Below, in pieces: positions 5,501 to 33,449 of a stretch of DNA of 64,000 nucleotides. Source of the DNA: a virus (lineage: Duplodnaviria > Heunggongvirae > Uroviricota > Caudoviricetes); the IMG/VR virus record IMGVR_UViG_3300032116_012976; one strand, 5' to 3'. The notes under the pieces are model-generated. The model had not been told where the DNA came from and did no database searches. It saw only the letters and a list, made by a program, of their open reading frames with translations. The translations under genes were made by a program, and so were the position numbers. Positions within the stretch are counted from its first letter, which is position 1. Every line of letters begins with the position of its first letter.

Positions 5501-6497
5501 TCTGGTATTGATGCACGACACCAGACTGGTTCCTGCCAATTTGTCAAGGCATTTTCCTGTGGACTATGAGTTTTTTGATCCTGGCAAAACATATCCCAGC
5601 AACACAGTTTTTGTTTATGATCATTATCTCAGTGAAATTGCAGTCAAACAGCATCTTGACAGTCATCTGCAAGCTGGCTACAGAGTAATATACGACAACA
5701 AAAATGAACATTGGTTTACCACTGACCAATGGTGGATTGTTGAGCTGCTACAAAAATATCCACAACAACACCTTTTGTTTAGTTTGGGATCACAGCCTGG
5801 CGCATTGCCTGGACTCAGAGTGCAGGCTGTGCCTGCTTGGATATGGCTGCGTTGCCGAGACTATTGGGAAAAATTGAACTATCACAATATTGCATATACT
5901 CCAACTGCACGGTATAAAACATTGTGTATGATCAACTACACACGACCCTGGCGAGACCTGGTGTGGCAAGCATTGAATCCCATGGAGGCAGATGTGATGC
6001 GTAGTTATTTGTCCCAGGGGATCAGCATGCCCGACGATGTTACAGGTGATGGACACTTGTGGCAGGTAAATCCACGTTGGTTTCATATTTCTGCAATGAG
6101 CTTGGTGTGCGAAAGTTCAATTGGTGCTGTTTCTGGAGAAATTTCAGTCACTGCACCGTCAGGTGTGTTTGTGAGCGAAAAAAGTCTAAAGCCCATGGCC
6201 ATGCAACATCCATTTATTGTGGTAGCAACCCCGGGTACCCTAGCAGAGATACAGAGTTTTGGATTTGAAACATTCCCAGAGTTATGGGACGAAAGCTACG
6301 ATTCAATTGTGGACTTTGGTCAGCGATTAAACGTCATTATGCAACAAGTGCAACAGTTTGATACAGCACAATTAAACCAGCTGGTAGTGCAACAAAAACT
6401 CCAACACAATCAGCACAGGATTTTTGATCCTGCGGTAACACAGCAATTGCTACAGCAACAGGTGTTGGATCCCATATTAGAATTTTTAAATGAATAA
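5478..6497 (+). CDS. putative glycosyltransferase, GT10-like TEK-motif family, paralog 2
   Basis: LVCESS...VFVSEKSLKPMAMQHPFIVVATPGTLAEIQSFGFETFPELWDESYD. Confidence 0.5.
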   Translation: MGMTMTSNLVLMHDTRLVPANLSRHFPVDYEFFDPGKTYPSNTVFVYDHYLSEIAVKQHLDSHLQAGYRVIYDNKNEHWFTTDQWWIVELLQKYPQQHLLFSLGSQPGALPGLRVQAVPAWIWLRCRDYWEKLNYHNIAYTPTARYKTLCMINYTRPWRDLVWQALNPMEADVMRSYLSQGISMPDDVTGDGHLWQVNPRWFHISAMSLVCESSIGAVSGEISVTAPSGVFVSEKSLKPMAMQHPFIVVATPGTLAEIQSFGFETFPELWDESYDSIVDFGQRLNVIMQQVQQFDTAQLNQLVVQQKLQHNQHRIFDPAVTQQLLQQQVLDPILEFLNE

Positions 6498-7779: not shown

Positions 7780-8833
7780 TCACATTGAAATAGACCTACG
7801 CGGACAAAACAGCCTACTAACTGTGCATATAGATGTGGCGGACAACACACTAAGTCGCAAATGGCTAACCGCGCTAAATGACATCATTAGAACTGATCTT
7901 CATTTGGAAAAGAATTACTGTTGGATGGGATGGACTGAAAGTGAACGAAATGCACAATACCTTTGTGAGCAAATTAATGCTAGTATTGATCACATCAATC
8001 GAAGTGGTATTGGCTATTGTATTGATTGTGATGCTTATACTGTAGAGAATACCATTGAGCCAGGAATCATTGGCACCAATCTAATCATCGGTGGCGTGGT
8101 GCATGAAAAAATGAACAATCTACACAGGTATTTTGAAGACCTACAAGGGTGGTCAGGTGGCATTTCAAATTATTATACTCGTGCAGATCCTGCTACACGC
8201 TGGCACATACGTCAACTAAATCTCCTGTGTCATGAATATGAAAGTCTTGTATTGAGCATGCGCAAGGCTGTGCATGCCCCTGAATGGCGCAGACCCTCAC
8301 AGTTGATGTGTTGGCTTAATGCACCGCGTTTTGCACTAGAACCCGCGGACTATGAATTGTTTGGCGTAGAAACCATCAACAGAACTCTAGGCGGTGTTTA
8401 TTTGGGTGTAAATAAAGCAGTTGGCAAACATCACTGGGAGGTGTTCAATGATGAAGGTAGGGATTCGCGTGTTGGCGAGCTTGTTACTACAGGACTGCGT
8501 GCTCAAACTGAAGCCGCTGGCGACTTTGATATCGAATGGGCCCGTGACCCAGGAGCATATCACTGGCAAATCAAAAAGTTACAAGAATTCCGCGCCTGGC
8601 TATTGGACAATGGGTTTGATCCAGAGGACAAAAGTCTCACCATTGGTCACCCAAAGGTGGCACAAGTTGACGTGATGCGAACATTTGGAACAACGGATTA
8701 TGAAAAGATTTGGGCGCAGTTGGCTCAACATCTTGATGTGTTGAGCATACGTACCGGGTGGGGCGAAGCTACATACAACTATCGCTGGAGCGATCCAGAC
8801 TATCATGAACAGCAAATAAGGAGATTGAAATGA
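7772..8833 (+). CDS. hypothetical protein
   Basis: 353-aa ORF in operon context, overlapping its neighbours. No motif recognised. Confidence 0.6.
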   Translation: MLDHIEIDLRGQNSLLTVHIDVADNTLSRKWLTALNDIIRTDLHLEKNYCWMGWTESERNAQYLCEQINASIDHINRSGIGYCIDCDAYTVENTIEPGIIGTNLIIGGVVHEKMNNLHRYFEDLQGWSGGISNYYTRADPATRWHIRQLNLLCHEYESLVLSMRKAVHAPEWRRPSQLMCWLNAPRFALEPADYELFGVETINRTLGGVYLGVNKAVGKHHWEVFNDEGRDSRVGELVTTGLRAQTEAAGDFDIEWARDPGAYHWQIKKLQEFRAWLLDNGFDPEDKSLTIGHPKVAQVDVMRTFGTTDYEKIWAQLAQHLDVLSIRTGWGEATYNYRWSDPDYHEQQIRRLK

Positions 8834-8931
8834 ATTGGATTAGACAAATTTGGGATAGAATTACACTAGAGTATCGTTATCGTAAAAAACTAAAAGAGCT
8901 ACGCAAAAGAGATCCTTTTATCTACAAATGA
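8830..8931 (+). CDS. small basic protein (33 aa), below the ORF-track cutoff
   Basis: MNWIRQIWDRITLEYRYRKKLKELRKRDPFIYK. ATGA overlaps at both ends (8830-8833 and 8928-8931) fill an otherwise empty gap. Confidence 0.5.
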   Translation: MNWIRQIWDRITLEYRYRKKLKELRKRDPFIYK

Positions 8932-9575
8932 AAAATCAGTTACTCACAATAGGTGATAGCTTTACACATGGTGACGAATTGTCAGATGTGTATCAAGCCT
9001 GGCCCTATCGTCTGTCAGACAAACTAGGATACGAAGTCCACAATCTTGGACAGTCAGGGTGCAGTAACGCTAGTATTTTGCGTAGAACATTAGAAGAACT
9101 TGCGACCAATCATTATGATTTAGTTATTATAGGGTGGACTTATCCGGGTAGAATTGAATGGAAAGATGACATTGGCATAGCGTATGATTTATGGCCAGGT
9201 GTGCCCAACGATACTAAATTTTTTAAAGATCATCCTTGGAGAGTTGATTTTTTAAACTTTATAAGTCAACATCACAATTCTGCTTATCTATACCAACAGT
9301 ATCTGATACAAACAATTTTGTTGCAATCGTTTTGCCAAGTCAACAGCATTGATTATAGAATGTTAGATGTACAATGGCACAATTACTACAGAAAAGTTGG
9401 ATCAGAAATGCATGATAAGTTAGAAGCAAAAATAGATACAACAAAATTTATAGGTTGGCAAAAGTTTGGTATGAGAGAACTAGTGGCTGATTTACCAAAA
9501 GGTCCTCAAAATCATCCGCTAGAACAAGGACATGAGAGAATAGCAAATGAAATCGCAAAACATATTGGGAATTAG
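8928..9575 (+). CDS. SGNH/GDSL-family hydrolase
   Basis: N-terminal LLTIGDSFTHGDE (GDS block). C-terminal H in ...LEQGHERIANE. Confidence 0.6.
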   Translation: MKNQLLTIGDSFTHGDELSDVYQAWPYRLSDKLGYEVHNLGQSGCSNASILRRTLEELATNHYDLVIIGWTYPGRIEWKDDIGIAYDLWPGVPNDTKFFKDHPWRVDFLNFISQHHNSAYLYQQYLIQTILLQSFCQVNSIDYRMLDVQWHNYYRKVGSEMHDKLEAKIDTTKFIGWQKFGMRELVADLPKGPQNHPLEQGHERIANEIAKHIGN

Positions 9576-11037
9576 TGCAGGCTTTCATGACGCTGCCTTG
9601 ACCTTGTTAGACCAGCACGGCAAGATTGTGTTTGCCGGCCATTCAGAACGTTACAGCAAGCAAAAAAATGATGCTGATATTTCATCAGCCATGCTTGACG
9701 AAATTGACATGAGTCAGGTAGGTACCATTGCGTACTACGAACGTCCGTGGATGAAACAACTGCGTCAATGGTATGCAGGACAGGGTATTGAGTGGAACAA
9801 AGTAACCACAAGACAAATACTAGAGCAACAGCTTGGCGCTGACCAAGTCAATGGCAAACGCATTAAAAACTACAATCATCATTTGTGTCATGCTGCTGCT
9901 GGTTTTCAAACAAGCCCTTATCCCATAGCCACAGTGGTTGTGATAGATGCTGTGGGCGAATGGGACACAGTGTCAATCTGGGGAGCAATGTATGATAAAA
10001 ATCTTAAAGCAACGTATACTCGACTTTGGTCGCAGAGTTATCCACATTCAATTGGATTATTCTACAGTGCTATTACTAAGCGCATTGGCCTACACCCACT
10101 AGACGAAGAATACATCACCATGGGCATGGCCGGATGGGGAACACCTCGATGGACCGAAGTCATGCGTGATGTACTCGTGGACAATCCAGAACAACTGCGG
10201 TTTAGATCAAACTTACACACAGGACTTGATTCAAGTTTTTTAGATTGTGCAACCAATGAAGATATTGCTGCTTCGGCACAACAACTCACAGAGTATCTAA
10301 TACACCAAGTTATGACCAAGGCCAAAAACTTTGGGTGGAGTGACAACTTGGTTTACATGGGCGGAGTGGCGCTAAACTGTTTGGCCAATAGGAGGTTAGG
10401 TGAATACTTTGATAACATATGGATTATGCCTTGTCCTGGTGATGCTGGCAGTAGCCTGGGCGCCGCCGCTCTTGCACACGGCGGTTGTGTTCAGTGGACT
10501 AGTGCTAGTCTTGGCCATAATATACCTGGTGATTACCCTGTTTACAATGCCATGGCTGCTCTTCTCACTGATCGTATTGTGGGTGTGGCATCGGGCCGAG
10601 CAGAATTCGGACCCAGAGCCCTAGGCAATAGATCATTGCTAGCAGACCCCCGTGGCGCTGACATAAAAGACCAAGTGAATTCGATCAAACGCAGACAAAA
10701 ATTTAGACCTTTTGCCCCAGTTATTCTGGAGGAGTTGGCTGACGATTACTTTGATATGCCTCGTTGCTGGAGTGACAGTAGGTATATGCAAATTGTCGCT
10801 CGTTGCCGGCATCCTGACTTATTTCCCGCTGTTATTCATGTTGACGGCACTAGTCGTGTACAGACTGTGCCCCGCGACGGATCAGGCATAAGAAAGCTGT
10901 TGGAAGCATGGTACGCCGAGACAGGTTGCCCTATGTTGCTTAATACAAGTTTAAACATACGTGGGGAGCCAATGGTAAACGACAGAGCAGACGCAGACCG
11001 ATTTGAAACACTGTATGGTGTAAAGGTATGTTCATGA
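9547..11037 (+). CDS. carbamoyltransferase (NodU/CmcH family)
   Basis: ILGISAGFHDAALTLL, NHHLCHAAAGF, LNTSLNIRGEPMV are typical of O-carbamoyltransferases. Confidence 0.8.
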   Translation: MKSQNILGISAGFHDAALTLLDQHGKIVFAGHSERYSKQKNDADISSAMLDEIDMSQVGTIAYYERPWMKQLRQWYAGQGIEWNKVTTRQILEQQLGADQVNGKRIKNYNHHLCHAAAGFQTSPYPIATVVVIDAVGEWDTVSIWGAMYDKNLKATYTRLWSQSYPHSIGLFYSAITKRIGLHPLDEEYITMGMAGWGTPRWTEVMRDVLVDNPEQLRFRSNLHTGLDSSFLDCATNEDIAASAQQLTEYLIHQVMTKAKNFGWSDNLVYMGGVALNCLANRRLGEYFDNIWIMPCPGDAGSSLGAAALAHGGCVQWTSASLGHNIPGDYPVYNAMAALLTDRIVGVASGRAEFGPRALGNRSLLADPRGADIKDQVNSIKRRQKFRPFAPVILEELADDYFDMPRCWSDSRYMQIVARCRHPDLFPAVIHVDGTSRVQTVPRDGSGIRKLLEAWYAETGCPMLLNTSLNIRGEPMVNDRADADRFETLYGVKVCS

Positions 11038-11720
11038 TTATAATTATGGGCGATAGTTGGGGCGTGGGAGAATGGGGATCGGATAAAGATCGCAGTTGTT
11101 GTTTAACGGGTCCGGGAATAGGTCAATTGTTTTCTTTGCATGGCAAAGTAATAAATTTTAGTCAGGGCGGTGCTAATAATTTTGAACAACAACAGGAGTT
11201 TGAACGGTTGTTGGCAAAATTCAAACCAGATGACAATGATCAATTTTATTGGATAGTTACAGATCCTTTAAGAAATGTTGTACCTAGCACGTTACTAGAA
11301 ACTGCTTCAAGTATTGAATCTGCCGCACAAGAACTGTTAAATTTGTTTTTTAAAAATATTAATTTCATTGCAACTAGTCGCAATATAACCATTAGGTTAA
11401 TTGGAGGGCTCTGTGATCTTGAACCTATATCTTACAGCCATTTAAAAGTGGTTGTTCCAAGTTGGTGCAAAATGCTTAATGCAACTCATACATCATCAAT
11501 TTTTGTAGATGACACAATTAAAGAGCTTGCACCATATATTGCAGCGCATAGGCCTGATTTAAAACATGAATGGACAGAAATAGCCAAAACTGCATTGGAC
11601 AAAAGAAAAAGTGTTAAGTACTTAGAATCTTGTGGGCTAATAGTGGCAGACCATCCTTCAAGACAAGCGCACAGATTACTAAGAGATTATTTGTCACCGG
11701 GCAACGAAAATGTTTTTTAA
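11028..11720 (+). CDS. SGNH-like hydrolase (divergent)
   Basis: N-terminal IIIMGDSWGVGEWG. Confidence 0.45.
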   Translation: MFMIIIMGDSWGVGEWGSDKDRSCCLTGPGIGQLFSLHGKVINFSQGGANNFEQQQEFERLLAKFKPDDNDQFYWIVTDPLRNVVPSTLLETASSIESAAQELLNLFFKNINFIATSRNITIRLIGGLCDLEPISYSHLKVVVPSWCKMLNATHTSSIFVDDTIKELAPYIAAHRPDLKHEWTEIAKTALDKRKSVKYLESCGLIVADHPSRQAHRLLRDYLSPGNENVF

Positions 11721-11768
11721 AAACATTGGTGTTAATATAATGCTAATTCAATCAGTTGATTCTTGTGG

Positions 11769-11865
11769 GAGTTTGACCTTGCACATACGTGGTGAGCCCA
11801 TGGTCAACGATAGAGCAGATGCAGATAGATTTGAACGTGAGTATGGTGTCAAGGTCTGTTCATGA
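11769..11865 (+). pseudogene. duplicated 3'-end remnant of the carbamoyltransferase gene
   Basis: Translates ...LHIRGEPMVNDRADADRFEREYGVKVCS*, versus the true gene end LNIRGEPMVNDRADADRFETLYGVKVCS* at 10951..11037. It keeps the same gttcATGA junction to the next ORF and has no start codon. Confidence 0.75.
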
Positions 11866-12407
11866 ATGTGCATGCAATTCATTTGCCCAATCAGGCTCGA
11901 TGTTTTTTAATTGACAGCTTTTTCCCACAAAGTCATCTAGCCAGCATACATGAAATATGTGAGGCTTTCAGCAAAGAGTCTGTGGCCTGGCAGCATCCTG
12001 AGTGGACCACGTATCGTTACATATATCAAAACTGCTCACCTGAATGGCAGTCAGTTGTGGACTATCTAAAAGTTCCCAACCCAGAACTCACTCAAGCACT
12101 GGGCTATGCTGTGACATGTGATGAAGTGTTGTTATGGGCAGAGTTTCAAGGCATTGGAATATTGCAACCGCATGTTGAAATACCCGGCGGTAAAAATCTC
12201 AGTCAGTTGTATATTACCAAACAGCCAGTGCCCAATAACGGCACTACCATCTATACCGATCAAAAAGAAATATTATGCTTGTTGCCGTATCGTGACAACT
12301 TTGGATGGTTCTTTGATGACAGTGGTCGAGTCATGCATGGGCGTGACAATGACGTACCACCAGACATCATACGTTTTACCATGATGATGCACTGGTCTAA
12401 AGTGTAA
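11862..12407 (+). CDS. hypothetical protein
   Basis: 181-aa ORF starting at the ATGA junction of the remnant. Confidence 0.55.
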   Translation: MNVHAIHLPNQARCFLIDSFFPQSHLASIHEICEAFSKESVAWQHPEWTTYRYIYQNCSPEWQSVVDYLKVPNPELTQALGYAVTCDEVLLWAEFQGIGILQPHVEIPGGKNLSQLYITKQPVPNNGTTIYTDQKEILCLLPYRDNFGWFFDDSGRVMHGRDNDVPPDIIRFTMMMHWSKV

Positions 12408-13448
12408 TTACAGATAAGTTTCTAAACCGCCACGACGGCGGATATCCTGTGTGCAACAAGATATACCGCCGTCCCAGAAGTAGCTGTGACGCAACTCACA
12501 TATAATGGGTTCAATCCCATGCTTCCTACAGTAATCAAAAACTTCTTTGTTGTACGCACTAAAGATCACGTGCGATTCATCTAACACAAGACAGTTGACA
12601 TCAAACACAGTTTCGGCCACAAAGCCAGTCCATTTGGTCAGATAAGTGTTCACAAAGTCTGTGAACTCAGGTGTGGGTGTTTGGCCTTGCACATACCATG
12701 CGCCAGGTGATTGTTCGTACTTGAACTTGCCCACTTCCATAGCGGCCCAGATTGAACTGTCCCAGATCTTACATACGTCCCAGCCAGGAAAGTCTTTGGC
12801 TAGATCCAAGTTAACATCGTGCTTGCTGGACAGTAACACACCGGGTTTGAGAATAGCAAACACAGCATCACCGTGTCCATCTGTAACAGCTTCGTGTATG
12901 CGATACTCTGGACCTAGGCAATTGTCCACAATCCAACGAGTTTGATCAGGACGCAAAAAGTCTGAGTTGTCAAAGAACACATCACGCCCCACACGCACAA
13001 TACAACTTGCACTTGCACCATTTAGTATGCAATCTGGATCCCAGGCGCTTTTGTGTGGGTTAATGACTGCATCTCCGTAGCCTCGGCAAACGTTATCCAG
13101 TTCAGGCATGGCCAACACACGCAACAATTTGCCGCCCAAGGTGATTTGCCAGTCGCGTGGTGTGAGTGGCGGCAGCGGAGCACCTCCTCCTTCAGTTTGG
13201 AACCATACAAATTGATCTTTTGCAGGTAGATCTGGACGACGAACTTGAGCTCCAAACTGCTCAATGGTCTTGGACAAGTTAGCAAGATCTTCTTCAGTTT
13301 CATGGAGAATCTGTTGCAGTTGATTGCGCACTTGTGGATTGTCTATGAAATCAAAGTAGTCAGGCGAGTAAGCACGACCCACAATTACTTCTTCAAGTGG
13401 TTGCCAGCTGGTGTAGGAGTTAACGATATTGCTCATGTATTTTCTCAA
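12408..13448 (-). CDS. amidinotransferase (glycine / inosamine-phosphate amidinotransferase family)
   Basis: N-terminal WQPLEEVIVG. C-terminal active-site block FWDGGISCCTQDIRRRG matches the GG-x-HC-x-T-x-D-x-RRRG signature of AGAT/StrB1-type enzymes. Confidence 0.75.
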   Translation of the reverse strand: MRKYMSNIVNSYTSWQPLEEVIVGRAYSPDYFDFIDNPQVRNQLQQILHETEEDLANLSKTIEQFGAQVRRPDLPAKDQFVWFQTEGGGAPLPPLTPRDWQITLGGKLLRVLAMPELDNVCRGYGDAVINPHKSAWDPDCILNGASASCIVRVGRDVFFDNSDFLRPDQTRWIVDNCLGPEYRIHEAVTDGHGDAVFAILKPGVLLSSKHDVNLDLAKDFPGWDVCKIWDSSIWAAMEVGKFKYEQSPGAWYVQGQTPTPEFTDFVNTYLTKWTGFVAETVFDVNCLVLDESHVIFSAYNKEVFDYCRKHGIEPIICELRHSYFWDGGISCCTQDIRRRGGLETYL

Positions 13449-14610
13449 TCAAGCTATTTAAACGCTTGCTCTTGTTGGCAACAAATAATTGCTGGTTGTG
13501 TTCTATGTCTGCTCTGGCAGCTTCGAACAACTGCGGTAACCTGGGTTGAGCGGCTGCTATGCTGTCACGCAAGCTCTCCCAACGCTGTGTGTGGTTTGCA
13601 ATTTTATCGTAACTGTTATCCAGTATGCCATCAAACACACGATAGCCCAGATCACGCAACACTTGCAAACTACCAGCACCACCGCCCACAAAAAACAACT
13701 GCCCGTGTTTGATAGGTTTGAATGTTTTTTCTGTAACAAATGCACCATTTGACTGATCCACATCAAATTGACTTTCCAACACTATGTTACAGTATGCGTT
13801 TGCAAAATATTTTGGTTCCATTACAGAATGATTGTTGCGATCGCTATCACTTAGTTCATCGCTGATGTAAGGTGCCTGATCCAGGAACCGTTTGCGATCA
13901 TAACGCAGCTGACTGATCATATCTACTTCTATTGGGCAGTCGGTATCTTCACCGTAAGGTTCTTCACAATAACTCCAATAACTGTTGCTCAGTATACCAG
14001 AGCGATGCAGGTCTGCCATGGCAGTGGCCCGCCACCATTTGTGCAGTCTGCTCAAACAAGTAAAATCTCGTTCTCGTGGCAAGTTGTGAATTTCTAAAGG
14101 CGCACTGTTGATGTTGCGCTGATAATACCACAGTTCAAAGTCGTGAAATGTAACAAAGCCGGGCAACTGGTCTGCGGATGTATTACTGCTGACAAATATA
14201 TAACAGTCTGGTGGCAACAGGTGTTGTTCGGCTAATGCGTCCAGTCTGTTTTTGATTCGTCTAGGACTGTCACCTTCGTGGTACATGAACAACACACGTA
14301 ACTCACTGCGGTGCAGTTTTTTTCTTACAGCAACTGTCATTAATTCAAAGTAGTCAATGTCAAAGTCAAAGAATCCCAAGCAAACAGGATAGTATGTGTT
14401 GGCTGGCAAGCTGTGGTCGATGTTGTGAACTGTTAAATCAATACCATGTTGACCACAGTATTCTTGTATTCGCACAGGAGTAGTGTATGGCCAGTGCTCG
14501 CCAAACTGTCTCCAGCCGGGAGTGTAAGGTCTAGCTTCGTGCCGTGCCAGGGCAGGATATATTTTACCTTTGATGGTTTGATCAGCAACAAGATTAAGTT
14601 TGTAATTCAT
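13420..14610 (-). CDS. putative glycosyltransferase, GT10-like TEK-motif family, paralog 3
   Basis: NIVLESQFDVDQSNGAFVTEKTFKPIKHGQLFFVGG...LGYRVFDGILDNSYD. Confidence 0.5.
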   Translation of the reverse strand: MNYKLNLVADQTIKGKIYPALARHEARPYTPGWRQFGEHWPYTTPVRIQEYCGQHGIDLTVHNIDHSLPANTYYPVCLGFFDFDIDYFELMTVAVRKKLHRSELRVLFMYHEGDSPRRIKNRLDALAEQHLLPPDCYIFVSSNTSADQLPGFVTFHDFELWYYQRNINSAPLEIHNLPRERDFTCLSRLHKWWRATAMADLHRSGILSNSYWSYCEEPYGEDTDCPIEVDMISQLRYDRKRFLDQAPYISDELSDSDRNNHSVMEPKYFANAYCNIVLESQFDVDQSNGAFVTEKTFKPIKHGQLFFVGGGAGSLQVLRDLGYRVFDGILDNSYDKIANHTQRWESLRDSIAAAQPRLPQLFEAARADIEHNQQLFVANKSKRLNSLIEKIHEQYR

Positions 14611-15790
14611 ACAACATGTTTTGTAGTTCAGGCCAAAGTATGCTAGTCAATCCGCCTTGGTAAAAATGATGAAAGTTGTGTTCTACTAAGGGCACACATG
14701 CACGATGAATTTGCTCACGTTCTTTCAACGACAAACTGTCAAGGTCCTTGAGTAATTTTACTACCTTTTCCACACGCAGTTGATCATCGGTTTCTTGGTC
14801 GTAACTTTCGTCAAACACAGAATCAAATGTTTTGAAACCATAACTGCGCATGTATTCCAAACTGCCAGCAGGCGCCATCAACACAAACGGCATTTCTAAT
14901 GCAATGGCCTTGAATGTTTTTTCAGTAATGTGCAATCGACGTCCAAAATAAACTGTTTCAGTTGGCACATACACAAGAGAATCCTGCGCTTCTGTAAAAT
15001 TGGTAAGCCAACAGCTGGCCATCTGTTGAGTTTCTTCGCCAGCAAACAGTCTAGGCAATTCAGCAGTTCGAAACACTTGCTCAATGTCTGGATATATGTT
15101 ATTATACTTCTTAGCAATGTCAACAATGTCAACATTTTCATACACACAGACTCGTGGAGCTGAAATGTGATTGTGTTCCAATTGCTGTTTGAACACATGA
15201 TACAAAAACAACACTCGATGATCACGTTTGCCAGCAACAATCCGATTGGGACTCATGAACGTTTTGGTAGGAGCACGATCACGTGCTCTAGGAATCAAAA
15301 AAGACTTATCGTATCCACGAAACCAATCTTGACAGGCCCATCCATGATAAAAATAGTAATGACTTTTCCAGCCATATATATCACACAACTGTTCAACTTG
15401 TTCTCCATGCTCGCTAACAATAACATGTCCTTGTGATGTTTTTATTTGTTTGTTTTTAATAATGTTTGCTAAATTTAGATCAGTATAATTTGCAATTAAA
15501 AAATCAGCCATGTTAATGTAGTTGCTGTCAGGATCGTTAAGTCTGTACACAACATCAGCCATGCGATCTAACACTTCGTTAAACAATCCTCCATGTGCAT
15601 CTAAATGAACTGGTTCTTGATCATGAAAAAATATATAATCTTCTTCCTCGATGCCATCATACCCAAAATTCAACAATGCGTTGGGGCTGGTATCACCAGG
15701 TGGATCACAAAAGAACATGCGTGTGCCAGGAACATTTTGCTTGATCCAAGGCCAAAATGTATTGTTGTAAATTTCGTCTATTCTAATCAT
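14594..15790 (-). CDS. putative glycosyltransferase, GT10-like TEK-motif family, paralog 4
   Basis: VYVPTETVYFGRRLHITEKTFKAIALEMPFVLMAPAGSLEYMRSYGFKTFDSVFDESYD. Its start codon shares the CATG at 15788-15791 with the divergent ORF. Confidence 0.5.
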   Translation of the reverse strand: MIRIDEIYNNTFWPWIKQNVPGTRMFFCDPPGDTSPNALLNFGYDGIEEEDYIFFHDQEPVHLDAHGGLFNEVLDRMADVVYRLNDPDSNYINMADFLIANYTDLNLANIIKNKQIKTSQGHVIVSEHGEQVEQLCDIYGWKSHYYFYHGWACQDWFRGYDKSFLIPRARDRAPTKTFMSPNRIVAGKRDHRVLFLYHVFKQQLEHNHISAPRVCVYENVDIVDIAKKYNNIYPDIEQVFRTAELPRLFAGEETQQMASCWLTNFTEAQDSLVYVPTETVYFGRRLHITEKTFKAIALEMPFVLMAPAGSLEYMRSYGFKTFDSVFDESYDQETDDQLRVEKVVKLLKDLDSLSLKEREQIHRACVPLVEHNFHHFYQGGLTSILWPELQNMLYELQT

Positions 15791-18700
15791 GTTTGATGTT
15801 TTTTATTCGGGGAAAAAACCCAATGTTGTGGTGGGAGTACAAGAAGCTGAATCGATTGATCATGCACGTCAGTTGAGTCGCACACGATATTTTTGGTGGA
15901 TACACTACTTAGCAGATCTCGAGCACTGGGATTTTTCTTGGGAGCCTGTACCGTGGCAAAGTCACCAACGCCACGCCTGGGCCAACCAACATCAACCTGA
16001 CGCTGGCATATATCTTGTGCCTGCAAACTGGGATGGGCAAGAAACCAATTATCACTCTGCTCCTGCAATACATCACGGGGTTGATGCAAACTACTGGCAC
16101 ATTCCCGGCTGGATTGATGCTACCAGCATAGATCCACAATGGAGTCCAGACCCAATGGATCCACCTTATATCTACGAGTTTCCTGTGGAGTGGGGATGGG
16201 ATAGAATTGGTGGGCCACAGTATCGAGTTCCTGGTGCTAGTGAAATCAAATACGTCAACGCTTTTGTAACAAAAACTCAGCACAATCCATTGCCTTGGTT
16301 TCAGCATTGTGAGTTTAACTGGACTGACGAAGCCTATCGTTGGCGCCCATGTCCCGAAGATCCTCCTTACATCTATGTGTTTGGTAATCAATGGTATCCA
16401 GCTGAAGTCATGCCTACTGTGGAATATCGAGTTCCTGGCGCCACAGAACGCAAATACATGGATCTGCGTGTGCAGTTACCAGAACGTCACACTAACCACT
16501 GGCACACTTTGCATGATTGCGAATGGGATTATTCATGGGTGCCAGACCCAGGAGATCCACCTTATATCTATGTTTTTGGCAATCAACATTGGCCTGCTGA
16601 AAAAATGCCCACAGTGGAATATCATGTGCCAGGCGCTACCGAGCGCAAGTACATGCACATGACTGCAAGATTACTCAGTGACAAAACCAATTGGACCATA
16701 CACGAATACATCAAACGATGGGACTATTCATGGGTGCCGGATCCAGGAGACCCACCATACATCTACATATGGGGCAATCAACATTGGCCCGGCGAGATCA
16801 TGCCCACCTTAACATATACAATGCCTGGTGCAACAGATATCAAATACGTAGATGGACCACAACCTGAGTTGGGCAGTTGCATGGGCAATTGGGAATGGTG
16901 CGAAGATATCAACGACAGTGAGTGGGATTGGACGTGGGTACCCAACCCCAAGGACCCTCCCTATATCTATGTGTTTGGCAATCAATGGAATCCGCCAGAA
17001 TTAAAAGCCAGTATCAAGTATCATGTAGATGGTGCTACAGAAGTCAAGTATATGGATCGACGCACCACAAGATTGCCGCAGCCTGATCTTTTTACTAATG
17101 TTCTTCCAGTGACGCAGTTTGATTACTCTTGGGAACCTGATCCCACAGATCCGCCAATGACCTATGTGTTTGGTAGTCAGTGGAATCCTGGTGTGCTAGA
17201 ACCCGCTGTAACATACAGCACTGGAGGCACAGAAATCAAGTATGTAGACAACATAATTGCTCAAGTGGCACCAAACCCTGAGTCCTGGACACTGCTGGAC
17301 GATGTGATAGAGTTTGACTACAGTTGGAGACCAAATCCCACAGATCCCCCTTACATTTATGTGTTTGGTAATCAATGGCTAAGTGCAGAAGTCCGACCTG
17401 CACTAGAGTATCATGTGCCAGGTGCTACAGAACGCAAGTACATGGATCATCCACGGGCTCAACGTCGTGGCAACCCAGAGTTATTTGTGAAGTTACATCC
17501 TTGTGCGTTTGATTGGTCGTGGGAACCAGAACCAGGATCGCCTCCTTACAAGTATGTGTTTGGTAATCAATGGCACGCCGCAGAAATCATGCCCACAGTT
17601 GAATACAACATGCCAGGTGCTACTGAACTCAAGTATATGGACGAGCCAAAAGCTAAACTACCCGAAAACCCCAATCGACCTTGGTACAATGTAGTTGAGA
17701 GCGACATGGATTATTCATGGGTACCGGATCCCGGAGATCCTCCATATATCTATGTGTTTGGCAATCAATGGCACTCAGCTGAAATCATGCCCACAGTAGA
17801 ATATCGCATGCCCGGCGCTACAGAACGCAAGTACGTGGATATATCCGCACAATTGCTACCTGACTTGACACACTGGCACATACCTGATCATGTTGATGTC
17901 ACGGACATGGACTTCTCTTGGGTACCTGATCCAGGTGAGCCGCCCTACATCTATCAGTTTGCCACACAGCACCAAAAAACAGGCGGCCCGCAATATCGGG
18001 TGCCATGTGCTAGTGAAGTCAAGTATGTGGATATGATGCGAGCCGAAGTCAAACGTGAGGCTGTGCCTATTTTTGAAATTGATCACATGGACGGCAATGC
18101 TGGTCAGATCCCTAACGTGGTCAAAAAGATTCGATATTTTGACAACTATAGAGACACTCTAATACGTCTGGCCAAGAGTCTAGTGGGCGAATACGAGCAT
18201 GTGTGGGTGTGTAGCAGTATATGCGATTACACTGACTTTGATTTTTCATGGCATCCAGAAACATGGCAAAGCACCATGCTCCATGTGTTCCCTAGCAACA
18301 AACAAAAGTTTGGGGACACATTCTACATGCATGTGCCTACCTTTGCTGAACGAGCAGAAAAGAAACAGTTGTTAGAATGGTATTCGGTAAACTATGTGTC
18401 ACGACGGGCAGTGCCACGCAGACCTATGCCTGTGATTGTGCATGATGGCGACAGTCAAGTTGATGCTGTAAAGTCACAAGACTTTGTGGGTCCATTGGCC
18501 ATGTTTACCAATCATGACTATGTGCCTAGCGACCTTGTTACAGTGCCCTTGTGGCGGCAAGAAACCAAGACTATTGTGCCTGTAAGTTCAGGCGCTGGCA
18601 GTGTAGTTGTGCCTAAAGTGGCTGTGCCCTTTATCAAGACACAGTTGTATGACTATCCGCACATAGACAAAACACAACGAATGTTGAAAGACAAGCCATT

Positions 18701-19388
18701 AGACATTGTGTTTATCAGCAATGGTGAAATCAACGCTAATCGACACTTTGAACATCTAGCCAGTGCGACTTGTAATTTAAAAAATAAACTGCATCGTGTG
18801 GATGGTGTGAATGGACGTGTGGCTGCTTATCATGCTGCCGCACAGGTCAGCGGTACACCTTGGTTCTTTGCAGTATTTGCTAAGTTGCAGGTCAATAAAG
18901 AATTTGACTGGAACTGGCAACCTGACCGCATGCAACAGGCCAAACACTATATCTTTCATGCCAAGAATCCTCTCAATGGACTGGTATACGGACACCAGGC
19001 CATGATTGCATACAACAAGAAGTTAGTGCTAGAGAACAAAGGTCTGGGCCTAGACTTCACACTAGACCAGCCACACGAAGTAGTACCCATCTTGTCAGGC
19101 ACAGCATGGTACACTGACTCACCGTGGATGGCCTGGCGTACTGCTTTCCGTGAAGTAATTAAACTGATGACCACTTTGCCTGATGTGGAAAGTGAATACC
19201 GCTTGAACAAATGGCTTGATATCAACAGCGACGAAGCGGACCCGCAGTGGAGTCGACTTGGTGCAGAAGATGCTGAGGAATATTACAACTCAGTCAACGG
19301 AGACTTTGCAGAACTGCGAAAGAGTTATGATTGGGCTTGGCTGGCTAGCTATGCGTTTATTAAACGATCTCTAACAACTGATCAATAA
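15789..19388 (+). CDS. 1199-aa tandem-repeat protein (W-x-W-x-P-x-P-x-DPPYIYVFGNQW...PGATERKYMD repeats) with a distinct C-terminal domain
   Basis: About 10 well-conserved repeats of roughly 65 aa plus degenerate copies at both ends. C-terminal ~450 aa are non-repetitive (IVFISNGEINANRHFEHL..., FDWNWQPDR...). Confidence 0.8.
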   Translation: MFDVFYSGKKPNVVVGVQEAESIDHARQLSRTRYFWWIHYLADLEHWDFSWEPVPWQSHQRHAWANQHQPDAGIYLVPANWDGQETNYHSAPAIHHGVDANYWHIPGWIDATSIDPQWSPDPMDPPYIYEFPVEWGWDRIGGPQYRVPGASEIKYVNAFVTKTQHNPLPWFQHCEFNWTDEAYRWRPCPEDPPYIYVFGNQWYPAEVMPTVEYRVPGATERKYMDLRVQLPERHTNHWHTLHDCEWDYSWVPDPGDPPYIYVFGNQHWPAEKMPTVEYHVPGATERKYMHMTARLLSDKTNWTIHEYIKRWDYSWVPDPGDPPYIYIWGNQHWPGEIMPTLTYTMPGATDIKYVDGPQPELGSCMGNWEWCEDINDSEWDWTWVPNPKDPPYIYVFGNQWNPPELKASIKYHVDGATEVKYMDRRTTRLPQPDLFTNVLPVTQFDYSWEPDPTDPPMTYVFGSQWNPGVLEPAVTYSTGGTEIKYVDNIIAQVAPNPESWTLLDDVIEFDYSWRPNPTDPPYIYVFGNQWLSAEVRPALEYHVPGATERKYMDHPRAQRRGNPELFVKLHPCAFDWSWEPEPGSPPYKYVFGNQWHAAEIMPTVEYNMPGATELKYMDEPKAKLPENPNRPWYNVVESDMDYSWVPDPGDPPYIYVFGNQWHSAEIMPTVEYRMPGATERKYVDISAQLLPDLTHWHIPDHVDVTDMDFSWVPDPGEPPYIYQFATQHQKTGGPQYRVPCASEVKYVDMMRAEVKREAVPIFEIDHMDGNAGQIPNVVKKIRYFDNYRDTLIRLAKSLVGEYEHVWVCSSICDYTDFDFSWHPETWQSTMLHVFPSNKQKFGDTFYMHVPTFAERAEKKQLLEWYSVNYVSRRAVPRRPMPVIVHDGDSQVDAVKSQDFVGPLAMFTNHDYVPSDLVTVPLWRQETKTIVPVSSGAGSVVVPKVAVPFIKTQLYDYPHIDKTQRMLKDKPLDIVFISNGEINANRHFEHLASATCNLKNKLHRVDGVNGRVAAYHAAAQVSGTPWFFAVFAKLQVNKEFDWNWQPDRMQQAKHYIFHAKNPLNGLVYGHQAMIAYNKKLVLENKGLGLDFTLDQPHEVVPILSGTAWYTDSPWMAWRTAFREVIKLMTTLPDVESEYRLNKWLDINSDEADPQWSRLGAEDAEEYYNSVNGDFAELRKSYDWAWLASYAFIKRSLTTDQ
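16131..18032 (+). repeat. in-frame coding tandem repeats (period roughly 190-210 nt)
   Basis: Repeated DNA such as ccagg(a/t)gatccaccttatatctatgt(g/t)tttggcaatcaa, read directly. Confidence 0.85.
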
Positions 19389-20460
19389 TGTATTCTACCT
19401 CTAAGTCTGTAAGCTCAGGGTAGATAGGCAAACTCAAACATCTGCGGCTAAGTGCATAACTGGCACTCAACATGTCTGGCCCTTGGTACTGTTGGAATAC
19501 AGGCAGTTCCTGTAGTGGTTCGGCATAGTGGATCTTGGTTTCAATCTTGCGCAAAGAGAGATTGCGTTGCACAATGTCACGTTGATCCACTTCAATCACA
19601 AACTTGTGATAGCAATGTTTGTCAAAATTGCTTTTGTCAATCAATGATCGTATGGGTGACTTTTCCAAGCGGTTCATCCAATAGGCAGCAATAGTACTTC
19701 TACGACTTTGCCATGCAGCCAAGTGCCGGGTCTTGATCATCATTTGCGCACAGTCCACCTCACTCATGCGTGAGTTGGTGCCTATTTCGCTGTGCTTGAG
19801 ATACTTGCCGTTGTTTACATAGTCTCTAGCAAACTCTTGCAGTTCATACCTGTTGGTCACTACAGCACCACCGTTGCCGTAGTTGGCAAAGTTTTTTGTA
19901 GGGTCAAAACTTATAGCGGCTGATTCGCTATGTCTATGGCATTTGTCGGCCAACCAGTGCTGTGCGGCATCTTCCACAATGATGTCGCCGTGATTGCGCC
20001 AGTGCTGATGAACACTCTGTCCATACAGGCCAACAAGGCACACTGCTTGATAACTTAGGTCTCGAGGCAACTTTCTATAGTCCATTTGCCCATAGTTGTC
20101 TGTGTCCAAGATGTAGATATTCCAGCCGGCTCGAATCCAAGCATTGGCAGTGGCTGGATAGGTCAGCGCAGGTATGACCACTGTGGGTGGTGTGATGCCG
20201 ATCTTGCTTCTAAAGTATTCAGCAATGATCTCTAGGGCATGTGTGCCTGAGTGACACAAGGTAGCATACTTGACACCGTTCTTTCTGCTGATCCAATGCG
20301 CAAACTCAGCAGTATAGTTGCCATCCATCAGTTGTCCCGAACGCAACACTTCATCAGTCACGTCCAGGATTTCCTGTCGGAGATTGTTATACTGCTTGCG
20401 GAGACCAGTAAACGGAATTGTTAAGCCAGTGGTAGTAATTTTCAAATCCTTCTTGAACAT
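19360..20460 (-). CDS. DegT/DnrJ/EryC1/StrS-family PLP sugar aminotransferase
   Basis: IPFTGLRKQY...VLRSGQLMDG, ...AISFDPTKNF... The start must lie upstream of the IPF motif, so it overlaps the epimerase 3' end by about 50-90 nt. Converges on, and overlaps, the end of ORF 15789. Confidence 0.8.
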   Translation of the reverse strand: MFKKDLKITTTGLTIPFTGLRKQYNNLRQEILDVTDEVLRSGQLMDGNYTAEFAHWISRKNGVKYATLCHSGTHALEIIAEYFRSKIGITPPTVVIPALTYPATANAWIRAGWNIYILDTDNYGQMDYRKLPRDLSYQAVCLVGLYGQSVHQHWRNHGDIIVEDAAQHWLADKCHRHSESAAISFDPTKNFANYGNGGAVVTNRYELQEFARDYVNNGKYLKHSEIGTNSRMSEVDCAQMMIKTRHLAAWQSRRSTIAAYWMNRLEKSPIRSLIDKSNFDKHCYHKFVIEVDQRDIVQRNLSLRKIETKIHYAEPLQELPVFQQYQGPDMLSASYALSRRCLSLPIYPELTDLEVEYIIDQLLEIV

Positions 20461-21355
20461 CAACCCGGGGATCAAAGCCTAATACTTGTCTGGCCTTGTC
20501 GATATTTAGTGCGCCACGGCTGGGAAAGTCTGCGTCTTTGTCTTTTACTTCTATTGAGCCCGAGCCCACAATGTCAACCACCATTTGGGCGGCCTGGAGG
20601 AGTGAGACTGAATGAGATTTAGTGATATTGTAAGTGTCGTTCGCAGCACCCACTTCCAATGCAGCCGCCACAATGCCATCCGCAGCGTCATCAACATAGG
20701 TAAAGTCAAGAGTCTCTCCCGCTCCGTTGACATTGAGAACTTGACCACGCATGGCTCGGAGCATAAATTTTGCCACAACACGATCTTCAACATCCAACGG
20801 ACCGTATACCGCTGAGGGGCGTATAATAACATATTCCATTCCTGTTCGACGAGCATAATCTTTTACCAGCCATTCTCCTGCAAGTTTCATGATGCCGTAT
20901 TGTCCAATTGGATTGCACGGAGCATCCTCAGTTACCTGATCGTCGAAGTCTCCGTACACCATTGAGCTTGAGATGTACACAAAGCGTCTAACACCGTATC
21001 TTTTGGCACTCTCAAGAACGTTGATCAGGCCACGCATCATTACATCAGCGCCGTGTGCAGGATTGGCGTTGACAACTTTCTGACGTGGAAATGAGGCCAT
21101 ATGGACAATCACTTCAGGCTGTTGAACTCTGATCACATAGTCAATGGTGTCCGCAGTTTCAATTGAGGCTGCATACAAAGGATGCCGATCAATCTTGACG
21201 GCTCGTTCTTCCATCAAGTAGTCTAATTCGGCCTGTGGAATAATGCCATAGTTGGTTTTGTTGTCAATGATGCTGACTGTGTGACCCTGGCGTTTGAGCC
21301 TTTGCACCACATTGTGTCCAATTAGGCCGTAGCCACCAGTTGTTAGTATTTTCAT
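20387..21355 (-). CDS. NAD-dependent epimerase/dehydratase (SDR)
   Basis: MKILTTGGYGLIGHNVV Rossmann motif; YxxxK region ...QYGIMKLAGE. Start moved to the ATGA junction at 21355. Confidence 0.85.
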   Translation of the reverse strand: MKILTTGGYGLIGHNVVQRLKRQGHTVSIIDNKTNYGIIPQAELDYLMEERAVKIDRHPLYAASIETADTIDYVIRVQQPEVIVHMASFPRQKVVNANPAHGADVMMRGLINVLESAKRYGVRRFVYISSSMVYGDFDDQVTEDAPCNPIGQYGIMKLAGEWLVKDYARRTGMEYVIIRPSAVYGPLDVEDRVVAKFMLRAMRGQVLNVNGAGETLDFTYVDDAADGIVAAALEVGAANDTYNITKSHSVSLLQAAQMVVDIVGSGSIEVKDKDADFPSRGALNIDKARQVLGFDPRVDVQEGFENYYHWLNNSVYWSPQAV

Positions 21356-21651
21356 TTGTTTCTCCACTTCATTTGATACCACATATAGACTCGTTCGTCC
21401 ATTATGGTAAAGTTGCCTGCTCTACTGTAGTCCCAAAAACGCCCATTGATATATTGTCCTGGATAGCCATAAGTTTCGATCAACCAACGCTCTTGCTCTA
21501 TAGTATGCACACCTTTGTGTTTGTACAGTGTCATTGGCACAAACTTTTCACCATCCCATACCTGCTTGCGCACCGGAGGTGGGAGAACTATATCTGACTC
21601 GTCGGCATATTCTATTACTGGTTGCCACCCCATTTGAGCCTCCAGAAACAT
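21352..21651 (-). CDS. hypothetical protein
   Basis: 99-aa ORF, coupled to the downstream gene. Confidence 0.5.
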   Translation of the reverse strand: MFLEAQMGWQPVIEYADESDIVLPPPVRKQVWDGEKFVPMTLYKHKGVHTIEQERWLIETYGYPGQYINGRFWDYSRAGNFTIMDERVYMWYQMKWRNK

Positions 21652-21950: not shown

Positions 21951-21978
21951 GTATAGCACACCGACTATGATTGTGCAA
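21951..21978 (-). promoter_or_regulatory. possible sigma70-type promoter (TTGCAC-N16-TATACT)
   Basis: Minus-strand reading of gtgcaa...agtata. Weaker match than the main promoter family. Confidence 0.3.
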
Positions 21979-22657
21979 CCAAGTCTGCAGCCATTGGAAA
22001 GATTGCAGTAATGGCCTGGGCACAAGCACGGGCAATATCCATGTGTTCTTTTTGGGTGCCATTGCTGGCACGAAGTTCGATGTAATGTATCCACGAGCGC
22101 AATGTACCGTTCATGTACATGCGGCTAACAGTGAGACCTTCGGGCAACACTGCACGAGCTTGTTCTTTGGCAATACCGTTGTCAATAGCCCACTTGTACT
22201 CTTTCTTCACAGCATACAACACACGCTTTTGAGCACGTTCCCACTCGTAAGCAAGAAGCTTCTGCTCCTCATCCTCCATGTCCAAGTCTACGCTGTTCTG
22301 TCTATTCCGGGTGTCTTGGAATCGTGCCTCACGTAACACAAACGCCTCATCGAGTTCAGCTGTAGGATCAGCATATCGCTGGGAGAACTCTTGAAAGCTG
22401 AAACTTCTGTGACGTAGAATCTGTCGCGCAATGTCACGGGTGGTGACAATTTCCATGCAGGCAGAGACCATTTCGAGTGGGCTCCAGTGCTGGTGCTTGA
22501 TAAGGTATCTGATGAGTCGTTCGCTTGTGTCTGTGTTGAATTGATTGGCTGGGTTGGACACACGGGCGCAATACGCAATGAGTTCCTGAGCGTCATCAAC
22601 ACCTTGGGATCTAAATGATTCAGTTGGTTGACTGTAGGAAAGTAGCTTAACATTCAT
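21965..22657 (-). CDS. thyX: flavin-dependent thymidylate synthase
   Basis: ThyX signature RHRSFSFQEFSQRY plus ...ELRASNGTQKEH... Confidence 0.9.
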   Translation of the reverse strand: MNVKLLSYSQPTESFRSQGVDDAQELIAYCARVSNPANQFNTDTSERLIRYLIKHQHWSPLEMVSACMEIVTTRDIARQILRHRSFSFQEFSQRYADPTAELDEAFVLREARFQDTRNRQNSVDLDMEDEEQKLLAYEWERAQKRVLYAVKKEYKWAIDNGIAKEQARAVLPEGLTVSRMYMNGTLRSWIHYIELRASNGTQKEHMDIARACAQAITAIFPMAADLVAQS

Positions 22658-26416: not shown

Positions 26417-26441
26417 GGGCTGTTCCTTAGTTGATGTGTAT

Positions 26442-26775: not shown

Positions 26776-26778
26776 ACT

Positions 26779-26838: not shown

Positions 26839-26841
26839 ATA

Positions 26842-33438: not shown

Positions 33439-33449
33439 GTGCCTCCTTT

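Follow-up and report, generated by a model that had tools for sequence, protein, structure and literature searches.

What use does a tailed phage make of an amidinotransferase, a carbamoyltransferase and a set of amino-sugar enzymes encoded side by side? The question is raised by the beginning of a 64,000-nucleotide stretch of Caudoviricetes DNA (IMG/VR virus record IMGVR_UViG_3300032116_012976), the whole of which we call the window. Working from the letters alone, the original prediction had placed between 8928 and 21355 a carbamoyltransferase, an amidinotransferase, two SGNH hydrolases, two glycosyltransferase (GT)-like paralogs, a DegT/StrS-type aminotransferase and an SDR enzyme, and had proposed a pathway for a decorated amino sugar or an aminocyclitol-like compound. 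Open reading frames (ORFs) lie at all of the positions given for these genes. We found that they form part of a larger island in which gene order is kept across diverged relatives and in which the most conserved gene encodes the amidinotransferase-like enzyme. What stands out is the clade to which this enzyme belongs, which is large, mostly viral, unusually constrained and without the canonical triad aspartate; the island itself is of a known kind, that of viral glycan and auxiliary-gene islands. With moderate confidence, we read its gene families as a set of soluble enzymes that would build and decorate a glycan in the cytoplasm of the infected cell.

Extent and conservation of the island

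The interval 8928-21355 holds ten long ORFs on alternating strands with hardly any intergenic space. These genes are real, but the unit that they belong to is larger than had been proposed: it begins near base 1 and spans about 21 kb (1-21.4 kb of the window), and its upstream half (1-8833), with five radical SAM paralogs, two genes for GT-B-like proteins and a conserved ORF (orf353), had been left out. The genes of the island and its flank are as follows (aa, amino acids; PLP, pyridoxal phosphate).

13-612 (+): radical SAM paralog, C-terminal part; its start may precede the window
587-1699 (+): GT-B-like paralog 1
1686-3017 (+): N-terminal-twitch radical SAM enzyme
3027-4286 (+): N-terminal-twitch radical SAM enzyme
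4283-5500 (+): N-terminal-twitch radical SAM enzyme
5478-6497 (+): GT-B-like paralog 2
6490-7779 (+): N-terminal-twitch radical SAM enzyme
7772-8833 (+): conserved 353-aa protein (orf353), always between the radical SAM array and the carbamoyltransferase
8928-9575 (+): SGNH/DUF6071 hydrolase-like protein, specific to this genome
9547-11037 (+): NodU/CmcH/TobZ-family O-carbamoyltransferase
11028-11720 (+): 230-aa protein in the SGNH-like slot
11862-12407 (+): 181-aa protein, specific to this genome
12408-13448 (-): amidinotransferase-like enzyme of a mostly viral clade with an FWDGG-x-C motif
13420-14610 (-): GT-B-like paralog 3
14594-15790 (-): GT-B-like paralog 4
15789-19388 (+): 1199-aa protein with diverged repeats and a putative C-terminal GT-A domain
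19360-20475 (-): DegT/DnrJ/EryC1/StrS PLP aminotransferase
20387-21382 (-): extended-SDR nucleotide-sugar epimerase/dehydratase-family enzyme
21965-22657 (-): ThyX flavin-dependent thymidylate synthase, conserved flank of the block

The order radical SAM array, orf353, carbamoyltransferase, SGNH-like slot, amidinotransferase, GT-B-like genes, repeat-bearing GT-A protein, DegT aminotransferase, SDR enzyme and ThyX is kept, apart from small insertions and losses, in the window and in four diverged relatives, namely two metagenome contigs (295 and 350 kb), one IMG/VR contig and one 148-kb contig of a metagenome-assembled genome (MAG); the relatives compared gene by gene include L001, L006 and L090. 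Island proteins are only 40-90% identical between relatives and synonymous sites are saturated. Because the order has been kept despite this divergence, we conclude that the genes are not decaying remnants, a possibility that the original prediction had itself raised; purifying selection agrees with this, dN/dS being computable for only a few gene pairs owing to the saturation. ThyX (Pfam Thy1, 4e-41) adjoins the block in L001, L006 and L090.

Near-identical genes were found on metagenome contigs of 295-383 kb. A megablast search of the 12.5-kb region against 50,697 phage records gave no match, so that there is no annotated close relative among them. L090 (NZ_JBBAKG010000003.1, 148 kb), filed under a 'Haliscomenobacter sp.' MAG, is collinear with the island and has an amidinotransferase 84% identical to that of the window. 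Most probably this is phage DNA that was binned with a bacterial genome, although the assignment could also give a clue to the host.

None of the 17 proteins of the island has a membrane segment, the maximum 19-residue Kyte-Doolittle score being 1.42. Scans for regulatory signals were uninformative, with 41 sigma-70 promoter-like sites, where 30±5 were expected, and 10 terminator-like sites, where 12±4 were expected. GT-B-like paralog 4 and the repeat-bearing GT-A gene diverge head to head from a common CATG at 15788-15791, their two ATG codons overlapping by two bases and leaving no intergenic space for a promoter; the same arrangement occurs in L001 (7748-7749).

A divergent clade of amidinotransferase-like enzymes

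The protein encoded at 12408-13448 had been called an amidinotransferase of the AGAT/StrB1 type. Comparison with solved structures upholds the family: phmmer against PDB returned AGAT (3e-16), StrB1 (6e-13), HsvA and SxtG, and nothing else, and a profile of 46 family sequences matched the same enzymes over their full length at E values around 1e-32 (SxtG 9e-33, AGAT 1.5e-32, HsvA 1e-31, StrB1 2e-30). StrB1 is also similar in length, and the C-terminal motif C-T-x-D-x-R-R-x-G of these enzymes is present in the window protein. Searches of Pfam-A and NCBIfam gave no match at E values up to 0.01, and PHROG 25854, whose function is not annotated, was the sole match in a curated library.

The motif GGISCCTQDIRRRG of the window protein aligns with GGFHCWTCDVRRRG of AGAT, with Cys331 falling on Cys407, the residue that forms the amidino-thio intermediate. 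This cysteine is present in 46 of 46 clade members, as is Asp194 (AGAT Asp305), while His192 (His303) and Asp99 (Asp170) are each kept in 45 of the 46. The clade also has invariant residues of its own: Asn285, Phe324, Trp325, Asp326, Glu279 and Trp273. The part of the assignment that did not stand is the triad aspartate, which the window enzyme lacks; this, its scores below the Pfam and NCBIfam models and the placement of the clade almost wholly on viral or MAG contigs set it apart from AGAT, StrB1, SxtG and HsvA. Judged from its sequence, the protein belongs to the amidinotransferase family by descent and to a distinct clade that lacks one defining catalytic feature. Amidino transfer would be its predicted activity.

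The amidinotransferase is the most conserved gene between the window and L001 (91% identity, against 41-76% for its neighbours; dN/dS about 0.03) and again between the window and L006 (80%, against at most 72% for the other genes). L006 carries two members of the clade, the second of which retains Cys, His and Asp and lies exactly between the SDR and DegT genes. No other single finding links the amidinotransferase as strongly to the amino-sugar module as this placement does, and a cytidylyltransferase-like gene nearby points the same way. A reading as an auxiliary gene for creatine or guanidinoacetate, as in ocean surveys of auxiliary metabolic genes, was considered and rejected as the principal explanation: there is no GAMT-like partner, and the neighbours are sugar enzymes.

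Distribution of the clade and its neighbours

An exhaustive search of 1.84 billion cluster representatives gave 726 related clusters at 50% identity, and the clade is encoded on at least 588 IMG/VR contigs. Among 185,579 cellular species genomes there were 11 clade matches, all of them on MAG contigs and none in isolates, in a scan that used 12 sequences and tighter patterns than its viral counterpart, which rules out a strict comparison of the viral and cellular counts. We also surveyed the neighbours of the gene in 80 distant IMG/VR loci, at 30-39% identity to the window amidinotransferase, with the following counts.

DUF6875-like protein: 34 of 80
Small protein weakly resembling the C-terminus of arginyl-tRNA-protein transferase, usually adjacent: 27 of 80
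DUF6614: 16 of 80
N-twitch radical SAM genes: 14 of 80
The same GT-B-like family as in the island: 12 of 80
Asp/Arg-hydroxylase-like proteins: 12 of 80
SDR: 11 of 80
UDP-glucose dehydrogenase: 10 of 80
GT1: 8 of 80

Of these neighbours, the genes for GT-B-like proteins, UDP-glucose dehydrogenase, SDR and radical SAM enzymes turn up repeatedly in independent lineages, contigs of 330-345 kb among them. Several of the distant loci carry two or three amidinotransferase paralogs each. At L049, L050, L055, L057, L073, L085 and others, the amidinotransferase-like gene mostly adjoins a 143-aa protein with a weak resemblance to the arginyl-tRNA-protein transferase C-terminus (E 1.8e-4), DUF6614 and a DUF6875-like protein, a neighbourhood that may be an arginine-related module.

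Parts of the island are also found in named viruses. In marine virus AG-345-D19, whose 66-kb contig carries a distant amidinotransferase homolog, genes for an amidinotransferase, a carbamoyltransferase and a radical SAM protein lie inside 5 kb. At 15371-17471 of this virus (MH319720), a ThyX gene whose product is 51% identical to the window ThyX directly adjoins a carbamoyltransferase gene that is apparently split into two ORFs. In Ralstonia phage RsoM2USA the island's succession of radical SAM, SGNH-like and carbamoyltransferase genes recurs, without the amidinotransferase.

Carbamoyltransferase, SGNH-like proteins and ORFs without a family

The assignment of 9547-11037 to the NodU/CmcH carbamoyltransferases survives homology search. 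The protein has both the Kae1-like N domain (Carbam_trans_N, 3e-38, 132.6 bits against a cut-off of 24) and the YrdC-like C domain (Carbam_trans_C, 1e-48, 165.6 bits against a cut-off of 27) above the Pfam gathering scores, it matches the PHROG 'Nol-like carbamoyltransferase' at 2e-90, and its best PDB matches are NovN-type enzymes, GdmN and TobZ. The NodU equivalog NF041651 was not reached (139 bits against a cut-off of 1000). Identity is 45% to the carbamoyltransferase of RsoM2USA and 50% to that of AG-345-D19.

Two SGNH hydrolases had been predicted next to it. For 8928-9575 the call is sound, with DUF6071 at 9e-11 (42.3 bits, cut-off 27) and Lipase_GDSL_2 just under its cut-off (4e-7, 31 bits against 32.9), while for 11028-11720 it is backed by motifs only, an N-terminal GDSWG and a C-terminal DHPSRQAH, with no family match in Pfam, NCBIfam or PHROG. 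The hhalign probability for the two SGNH candidates was only 9%, and only the GDS and HPxxQxH motifs are common to them. The 8928-9575 gene is missing from L001 and L006; RsoM2USA has a similar gene before its carbamoyltransferase. The slot of 11028-11720 is filled in the relatives by non-orthologous GDS...HPxxQGH proteins. The 181-aa protein at 11862-12407, also missing from L001 and L006, had no match in Pfam, NCBIfam or PHROG, nor did orf353, which was compared with PDB as well, by profile, and gave nothing; orf353 has orthologs in L001, L006 and L090 at 56-69% identity.

Glycosyltransferase-fold proteins

The block encodes five proteins of glycosyltransferase fold, four GT-B-like and one with a putative GT-A domain. 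The two GT-like paralogs of the original prediction (13420-14610 and 14594-15790) share a C-terminal stretch at 39% identity (E 4e-10), and together with 587-1699 and 5478-6497 they form one BLAST family. Paralog 1 has an ortholog in L001 and no match in Pfam, NCBIfam or PHROG, paralog 2 is collinear in the relatives, and paralogs 3 and 4 gave no sequence-family match; a profile of the whole family found nothing significant in PDB. An AlphaFold2 model of paralog 3 (predicted local distance difference test, pLDDT, 80.7) was matched by Foldseek to SenB, MshA, BshA, SdgB and OtsA in PDB with probabilities of about 1.0 and template modelling (TM) scores of 0.44-0.52, and on this model the protein has the two-Rossmann GT-B fold. 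A BFVD comparison of paralog 3 brought up many homologs from uncultured tailed phages, with TM scores reaching 0.8, and a single mimivirus homolog (LCMiAC02). One of the BFVD homologs is annotated as a fusion with a UDP-glucose dehydrogenase domain, and through it the family is connected with the metabolism of nucleotide sugars.

The 1199-aa ORF at 15789-19388 had not been recognised as a repeat array with a putative terminal GT-A domain. At least eight diverged repeats of about 65 aa (WDYSWxPDPxDPPYIYVFGNQ...) precede the domain, with no tandem repeat at the DNA level. The model of the C-terminal part matched WrtF, ppGalNAc-T, ArnC, SunS/ThuS, GtrB and PBCV-1 A64R by Foldseek, with a probability of about 1.0 for WrtF, ppGalNAc-T, ArnC and SunS; a sequence profile of the domain found nothing significant in PDB. 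The domain has more than 4800 homologs, about 450-760 aa long among the matches listed. Their lengths, for example 541, 601, 666 and 735 aa, step by roughly one 65-aa repeat, and repeat number seems to differ between phage genomes. The glycosyltransferases change fast among the relatives, at 41-65% identity.

Amino-sugar enzymes and possible distal helpers

The DegT/StrS-type aminotransferase at 19360-20475 is confirmed by Pfam (5e-53, 181 bits against a cut-off of 19.8), and its best PDB matches are 7b0d, DesV, QdtB, WbpE and NtdA. The lysine of its ISFDPTKN motif aligns with the PLP lysine in the sFyPTKN motif of 7b0d; no NCBIfam equivalog cut-off was reached. The SDR gene at 20387-21382 is likewise secure as a member of the epimerase/dehydratase family (Pfam Epimerase 3e-46, 158 bits against a cut-off of 20.9), with the catalytic YxxxK motif present as YGIMK.

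Further along the window, the AsnB-like, NeuD-like and cytidylyltransferase genes that had been predicted are present, together with a third DUF6071/SGNH-like gene.

30300-31079 (-): NeuD/PglB/VioB-like hexapeptide sugar acetyltransferase (Hexapep 1e-17; TIGR03570 1.9e-26, under its cut-off)
56435-57976 (+): AsnB-like glutamine amidotransferase (Asn_synthase 2.6e-23; TIGR01536 5.9e-40, under its cut-off)
62893-63621 (-): DUF6071/SGNH-like protein (DUF6071 9e-7; BLASTP against 8928-9575, 1e-5)
63618-63998 (-): cytidylyltransferase-like partial ORF, cut by the window end, with a weak match (CTP_transf_like 1.3e-4, 22.6 bits against a cut-off of 21)

An ortholog of the partial ORF, at 87% identity, sits between ThyX and the SDR gene within the L006 cluster. 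We infer that the NeuD-like and AsnB-like genes are linked to the island.

The N-terminal-twitch radical SAM array

The five radical SAM paralogs of the upstream region, four complete and one truncated at the window start, belong to the N-terminal-twitch family NF033640 of NCBIfam. They are interleaved with GT-B-like paralogs 1 and 2 and followed by orf353. Five genes score 199-387 bits against a cut-off of 170, among them 1686-3017 with 297 bits, 3027-4286 with 387, 4283-5500 with 329 and 6490-7779 with 281. A CNLKCRSC-type (CxxxCxxC) motif is present in the paralogs. The truncated gene is 67% identical to its counterpart in L001 and 28% identical (1.8e-18) to an RsoM2USA gene, and 1686-3017 is 51% identical to a gene of the same phage. 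In 3027-4286, Pfam places SPASM at residues 31-96 and Radical_SAM at 134-265; in the NF033640 paralogs the auxiliary-cluster domain stands ahead of the radical SAM core. A further paralog lies at 40403-41527, which makes six in the window counting the truncated one. We found no characterised member of NF033640, and phmmer of one paralog against PDB gave no significant match.

Proposed function and alternatives

We propose the following steps from family membership, the order of reactions, donor, acceptor and product being our reconstruction. The SDR enzyme and the DegT aminotransferase would convert a nucleotide-activated sugar into an amino sugar, and the distal cytidylyltransferase-like, NeuD-like and AsnB-like products may assist. 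The four GT-B-like enzymes and the repeat-bearing GT-A enzyme would place sugars on an acceptor. The carbamoyltransferase would O-carbamoylate a hydroxyl, and the amidinotransferase-like enzyme would carry the amidino group of arginine, through a thio-intermediate on Cys331, onto an amine of the sugar or the acceptor, giving a guanidino group. The SGNH-like proteins might add or remove acyl groups, and the radical SAM paralogs might carry tailoring reactions by radical chemistry (epimerisation, oxidation or methylation, for example). No Wzx/Wzy, phosphoglycosyl transferase or lipid-carrier machinery was found among the scanned ORFs of the window, and all proteins of the island are soluble; for these reasons phage structural proteins or another cytoplasmic macromolecule are favoured as the acceptor over a classical Wzx/Wzy envelope route. 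Solubility and the virion association of a homolog in phage S-SCSM2R (see below) incline us towards the structural proteins. The decorated amino-sugar pathway of the original prediction is supported by the five glycosyltransferase-fold proteins, by the amidinotransferase paralog between the SDR and DegT genes of L006 and by an independent, analogous gene set in S-SCSM2R.

Several observations weigh against this proposal. In place of the AGAT triad residue Asp254, within the FDAAD motif, the window enzyme has Ser146, in a column that holds S, N, D, A or E across the clade, and at the position of AGAT Arg322 it has Asp211 in an alignment read by eye; these differences leave it uncertain that an amidino group is transferred from arginine. 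The best PDB match of the SDR enzyme is the UDP-glucose 4-epimerase 4zrm (7.7e-33), followed by UDP-glucuronate decarboxylases and dTDP-glucose 4,6-dehydratases, a mixture that does not allow it to be assigned to one reaction. There is no sugar nucleotidyltransferase within the block here, the sole candidate being the weak partial match 42 kb off. The GT-A model is of low overall confidence (pLDDT 66), with TMq values of 0.22-0.29 and a confident part limited to residues 211-443. A carbamoyltransferase and a DegT gene stand beside the amidinotransferase family in only one of the 80 distant loci, a close relative, and part of the clustering may therefore be lineage-specific.

The island could instead serve DNA or nucleotide hypermodification, with hydroxymethyl-pyrimidines decorated by sugars, carbamoyl, amino or guanidino groups to evade host restriction, but we judge this unlikely. 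T4 DNA glucosyltransferases have the GT-B fold, and PLP and radical SAM enzymes act in thymidine hypermodification. The solubility of every island enzyme would suit such a role, and ThyX flanks the block in all four relatives and directly adjoins a carbamoyltransferase gene in AG-345-D19. A phage NodU-family carbamoyltransferase makes 5-carbamoyloxymethylcytosine in DNA (MetaGPA; eLife 2021, PMC8670742); it has the same two-domain NodU/TobZ architecture as the window enzyme, and the PRA-PH/MazG-like nucleotide pyrophosphohydrolase domain that co-occurs with DNA-modifying carbamoyltransferases (PMC8670742) is encoded in the window at 60460-60849 (-) (1e-11). However, the window carbamoyltransferase is just 27% identical, over 443 columns, to that enzyme of 5-hydroxymethylcytosine and lies nearer to NovN, GdmN and TobZ. 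The partner reported in that work is a ThyA-type hydroxymethylase (PF00303), none of which was found near the gene or elsewhere in the window, and ThyX is not known to hydroxymethylate. Carbamoyltransferases on the unmodified contigs of the same study adjoined glycosyltransferases (PMC8670742), which is the context of the window gene, flanked as it is by glycosyltransferase-like genes. Moreover, SDR and DegT enzymes work on nucleotide sugars, and among the top Foldseek matches a DNA beta-glucosyltransferase appears only at BFVD rank 35 (E 9e-4).

A small-molecule pathway of the aminoglycoside or aminocyclitol type, as the original prediction had suggested, seems very improbable to us, even though StrB1-type amidinotransferases, StsC/StrS-type aminotransferases and carbamoyltransferases occur in streptomycin/bluensomycin-type pathways and the same three families co-occur in the island. 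The best PDB match of the DegT protein is deposited as a glutamine-scyllo-inositol transaminase. Unlike those pathways, the island has many glycosyltransferase-fold proteins and a radical SAM array, and when most window ORFs that reach 150 aa, and several shorter ones, were scanned with Pfam, NCBIfam and PHROG, there was no myo-inositol-phosphate synthase, 2-deoxy-scyllo-inosose synthase or other cyclitol synthase and no recognisable transporter, exporter or self-resistance gene, the kinase-like AAA_33 domain on a relative's contig aside. Five fast-diverging glycosyltransferase-fold proteins, one with variable repeats, fit macromolecular or surface glycans better than a fixed metabolite, and the clade is found almost solely on viral contigs. 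We also think it unlikely that no single pathway exists and that the island is an accessory collection of independent auxiliary genes, its amidinotransferase-like enzyme acting off sugars, on free amino acids, polyamines, protein lysines or N-termini. Such a collection would explain why the commonest immediate neighbours in the 80 distant loci (DUF6875-like, weakly arginyl-transferase-like and DUF6614) are not sugar enzymes and why the 8928-9575 gene and the 181-aa ORF are present here and not in the relatives; HsvA, which we take to be a polyamine-type amidinotransferase, is among the closest solved relatives. Against it stand the core order, which outlasted synonymous saturation in four relatives, the exact position of the L006 paralog and the sugar-related neighbours that recur in independent lineages. 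The cultured phage S-SCSM2R bears on both of these alternatives: its authors proposed antibiotic synthesis, and the homolog was detected in purified virions (PMC12801897), yet its genome shows the association of amidinotransferase and sugar genes twice.

Our preferred reading remains that the island assembles and decorates a glycan. A more speculative extension, possible but doubtful, is that the FWDGG clade is an essentially virus-specific family whose members would attach amidino or guanidino groups to some macromolecule that is produced in the infected cell, for example a glycan or protein of the virion or a DNA-attached sugar. Viral macromolecules would then undergo a class of modification not described so far, and the clade would form the functional core of islands that also hold N-twitch radical SAM enzymes and the phage-specific GT-B-like family.

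Comparison with other viral gene sets

Viral glycosylation sets include the capsid glycosyltransferase A64R of chlorovirus PBCV-1, the amino-sugar genes of Mimivirus and the lipopolysaccharide-gene cluster of cyanophage P-SSM2. As in the island, soluble glycosyltransferases occur there with nucleotide-sugar tailoring enzymes, but we know of no report that any of the three combines an N-twitch radical SAM array with both an amidinotransferase and a carbamoyltransferase.

The cultured Synechococcus phage S-SCSM2R (BMC Biol 2025, PMC12801897) has analogous annotated sets at ORF264-269 and ORF301-310, their functions being annotation only. ORF266 belongs to the same FWDGG clade (29% identity) and adjoins kdsA/kdsB and 2-oxoglutarate oxygenases. 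ORF309, a canonical amidinotransferase (22% identity), has glycosyltransferases, a DegT-like 'AHBA synthase' and a radical SAM gene around it; it keeps an FDAAN motif with the triad Asp, which the window protein does not. S-SCSM2R is a T4-like cyanomyovirus of 244 kb and no relative of the PA5oct/CBB-like jumbo phages, and its set is without the carbamoyltransferase, the N-twitch radical SAM array, the repeat GT-A protein and a GT-B-like family of the island type. Its authors named the genes 'antibiotic synthesis genes', and the protein that they detected in purified virions is a clade member (PMC12801897).

Other features of the window

A 5'-3' exonuclease encoded in the window shares 45-47% identity with its counterparts in the jumbo phages PA5oct, XaC1, XbC2 and CBB, and we therefore place the window in an uncultured jumbo phage of this broad group. 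The number of one related sample may point to a freshwater JGI project. Its phage origin is supported by this similarity, by the near-identical genes on contigs of 295-383 kb and by 30 tRNA genes and a transfer-messenger RNA (tmRNA). The tRNA genes, at 36479-49077 (-), cover most amino acids, and the tmRNA at 47603-48121, on the same minus strand, has the tag peptide ANDEKFLMAA; this is a very large translational set for a phage.

A Gram-negative porin is encoded at 46657-47547 (-) (Porin_4, 2.8e-25), and an identical protein occurs on contigs in 51 metagenome-collection blocks; it may point to the host or have a role in remodelling the envelope. At 28844-34608, 44015-44986 and 49536-50300 there are an Asp/Arg beta-hydroxylase-like gene, two fatty-acid desaturases, two TauD-family dioxygenases, a ketoacyl synthase and a Band_7 protein, a lipid- and hydroxylation-type group that suggests remodelling of membrane or envelope lipids. 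A MoxR-type AAA ATPase beside a DUF2201 metallopeptidase/VWA protein at 25106-27927 (-) resembles the cobS/cobT-like pair common in large marine phages.

Implications

Sugar genes in phages are nothing new, and a few phage genomes have annotated amidinotransferase genes, although none of these has been studied. If guanidino groups are indeed placed on a viral glycan, protein or DNA-linked sugar, this would be a new chemistry for virus-host recognition or for the evasion of defences. The idea is directly testable in the cultured cyanophage S-SCSM2R, in whose virions a member of the clade has been detected.

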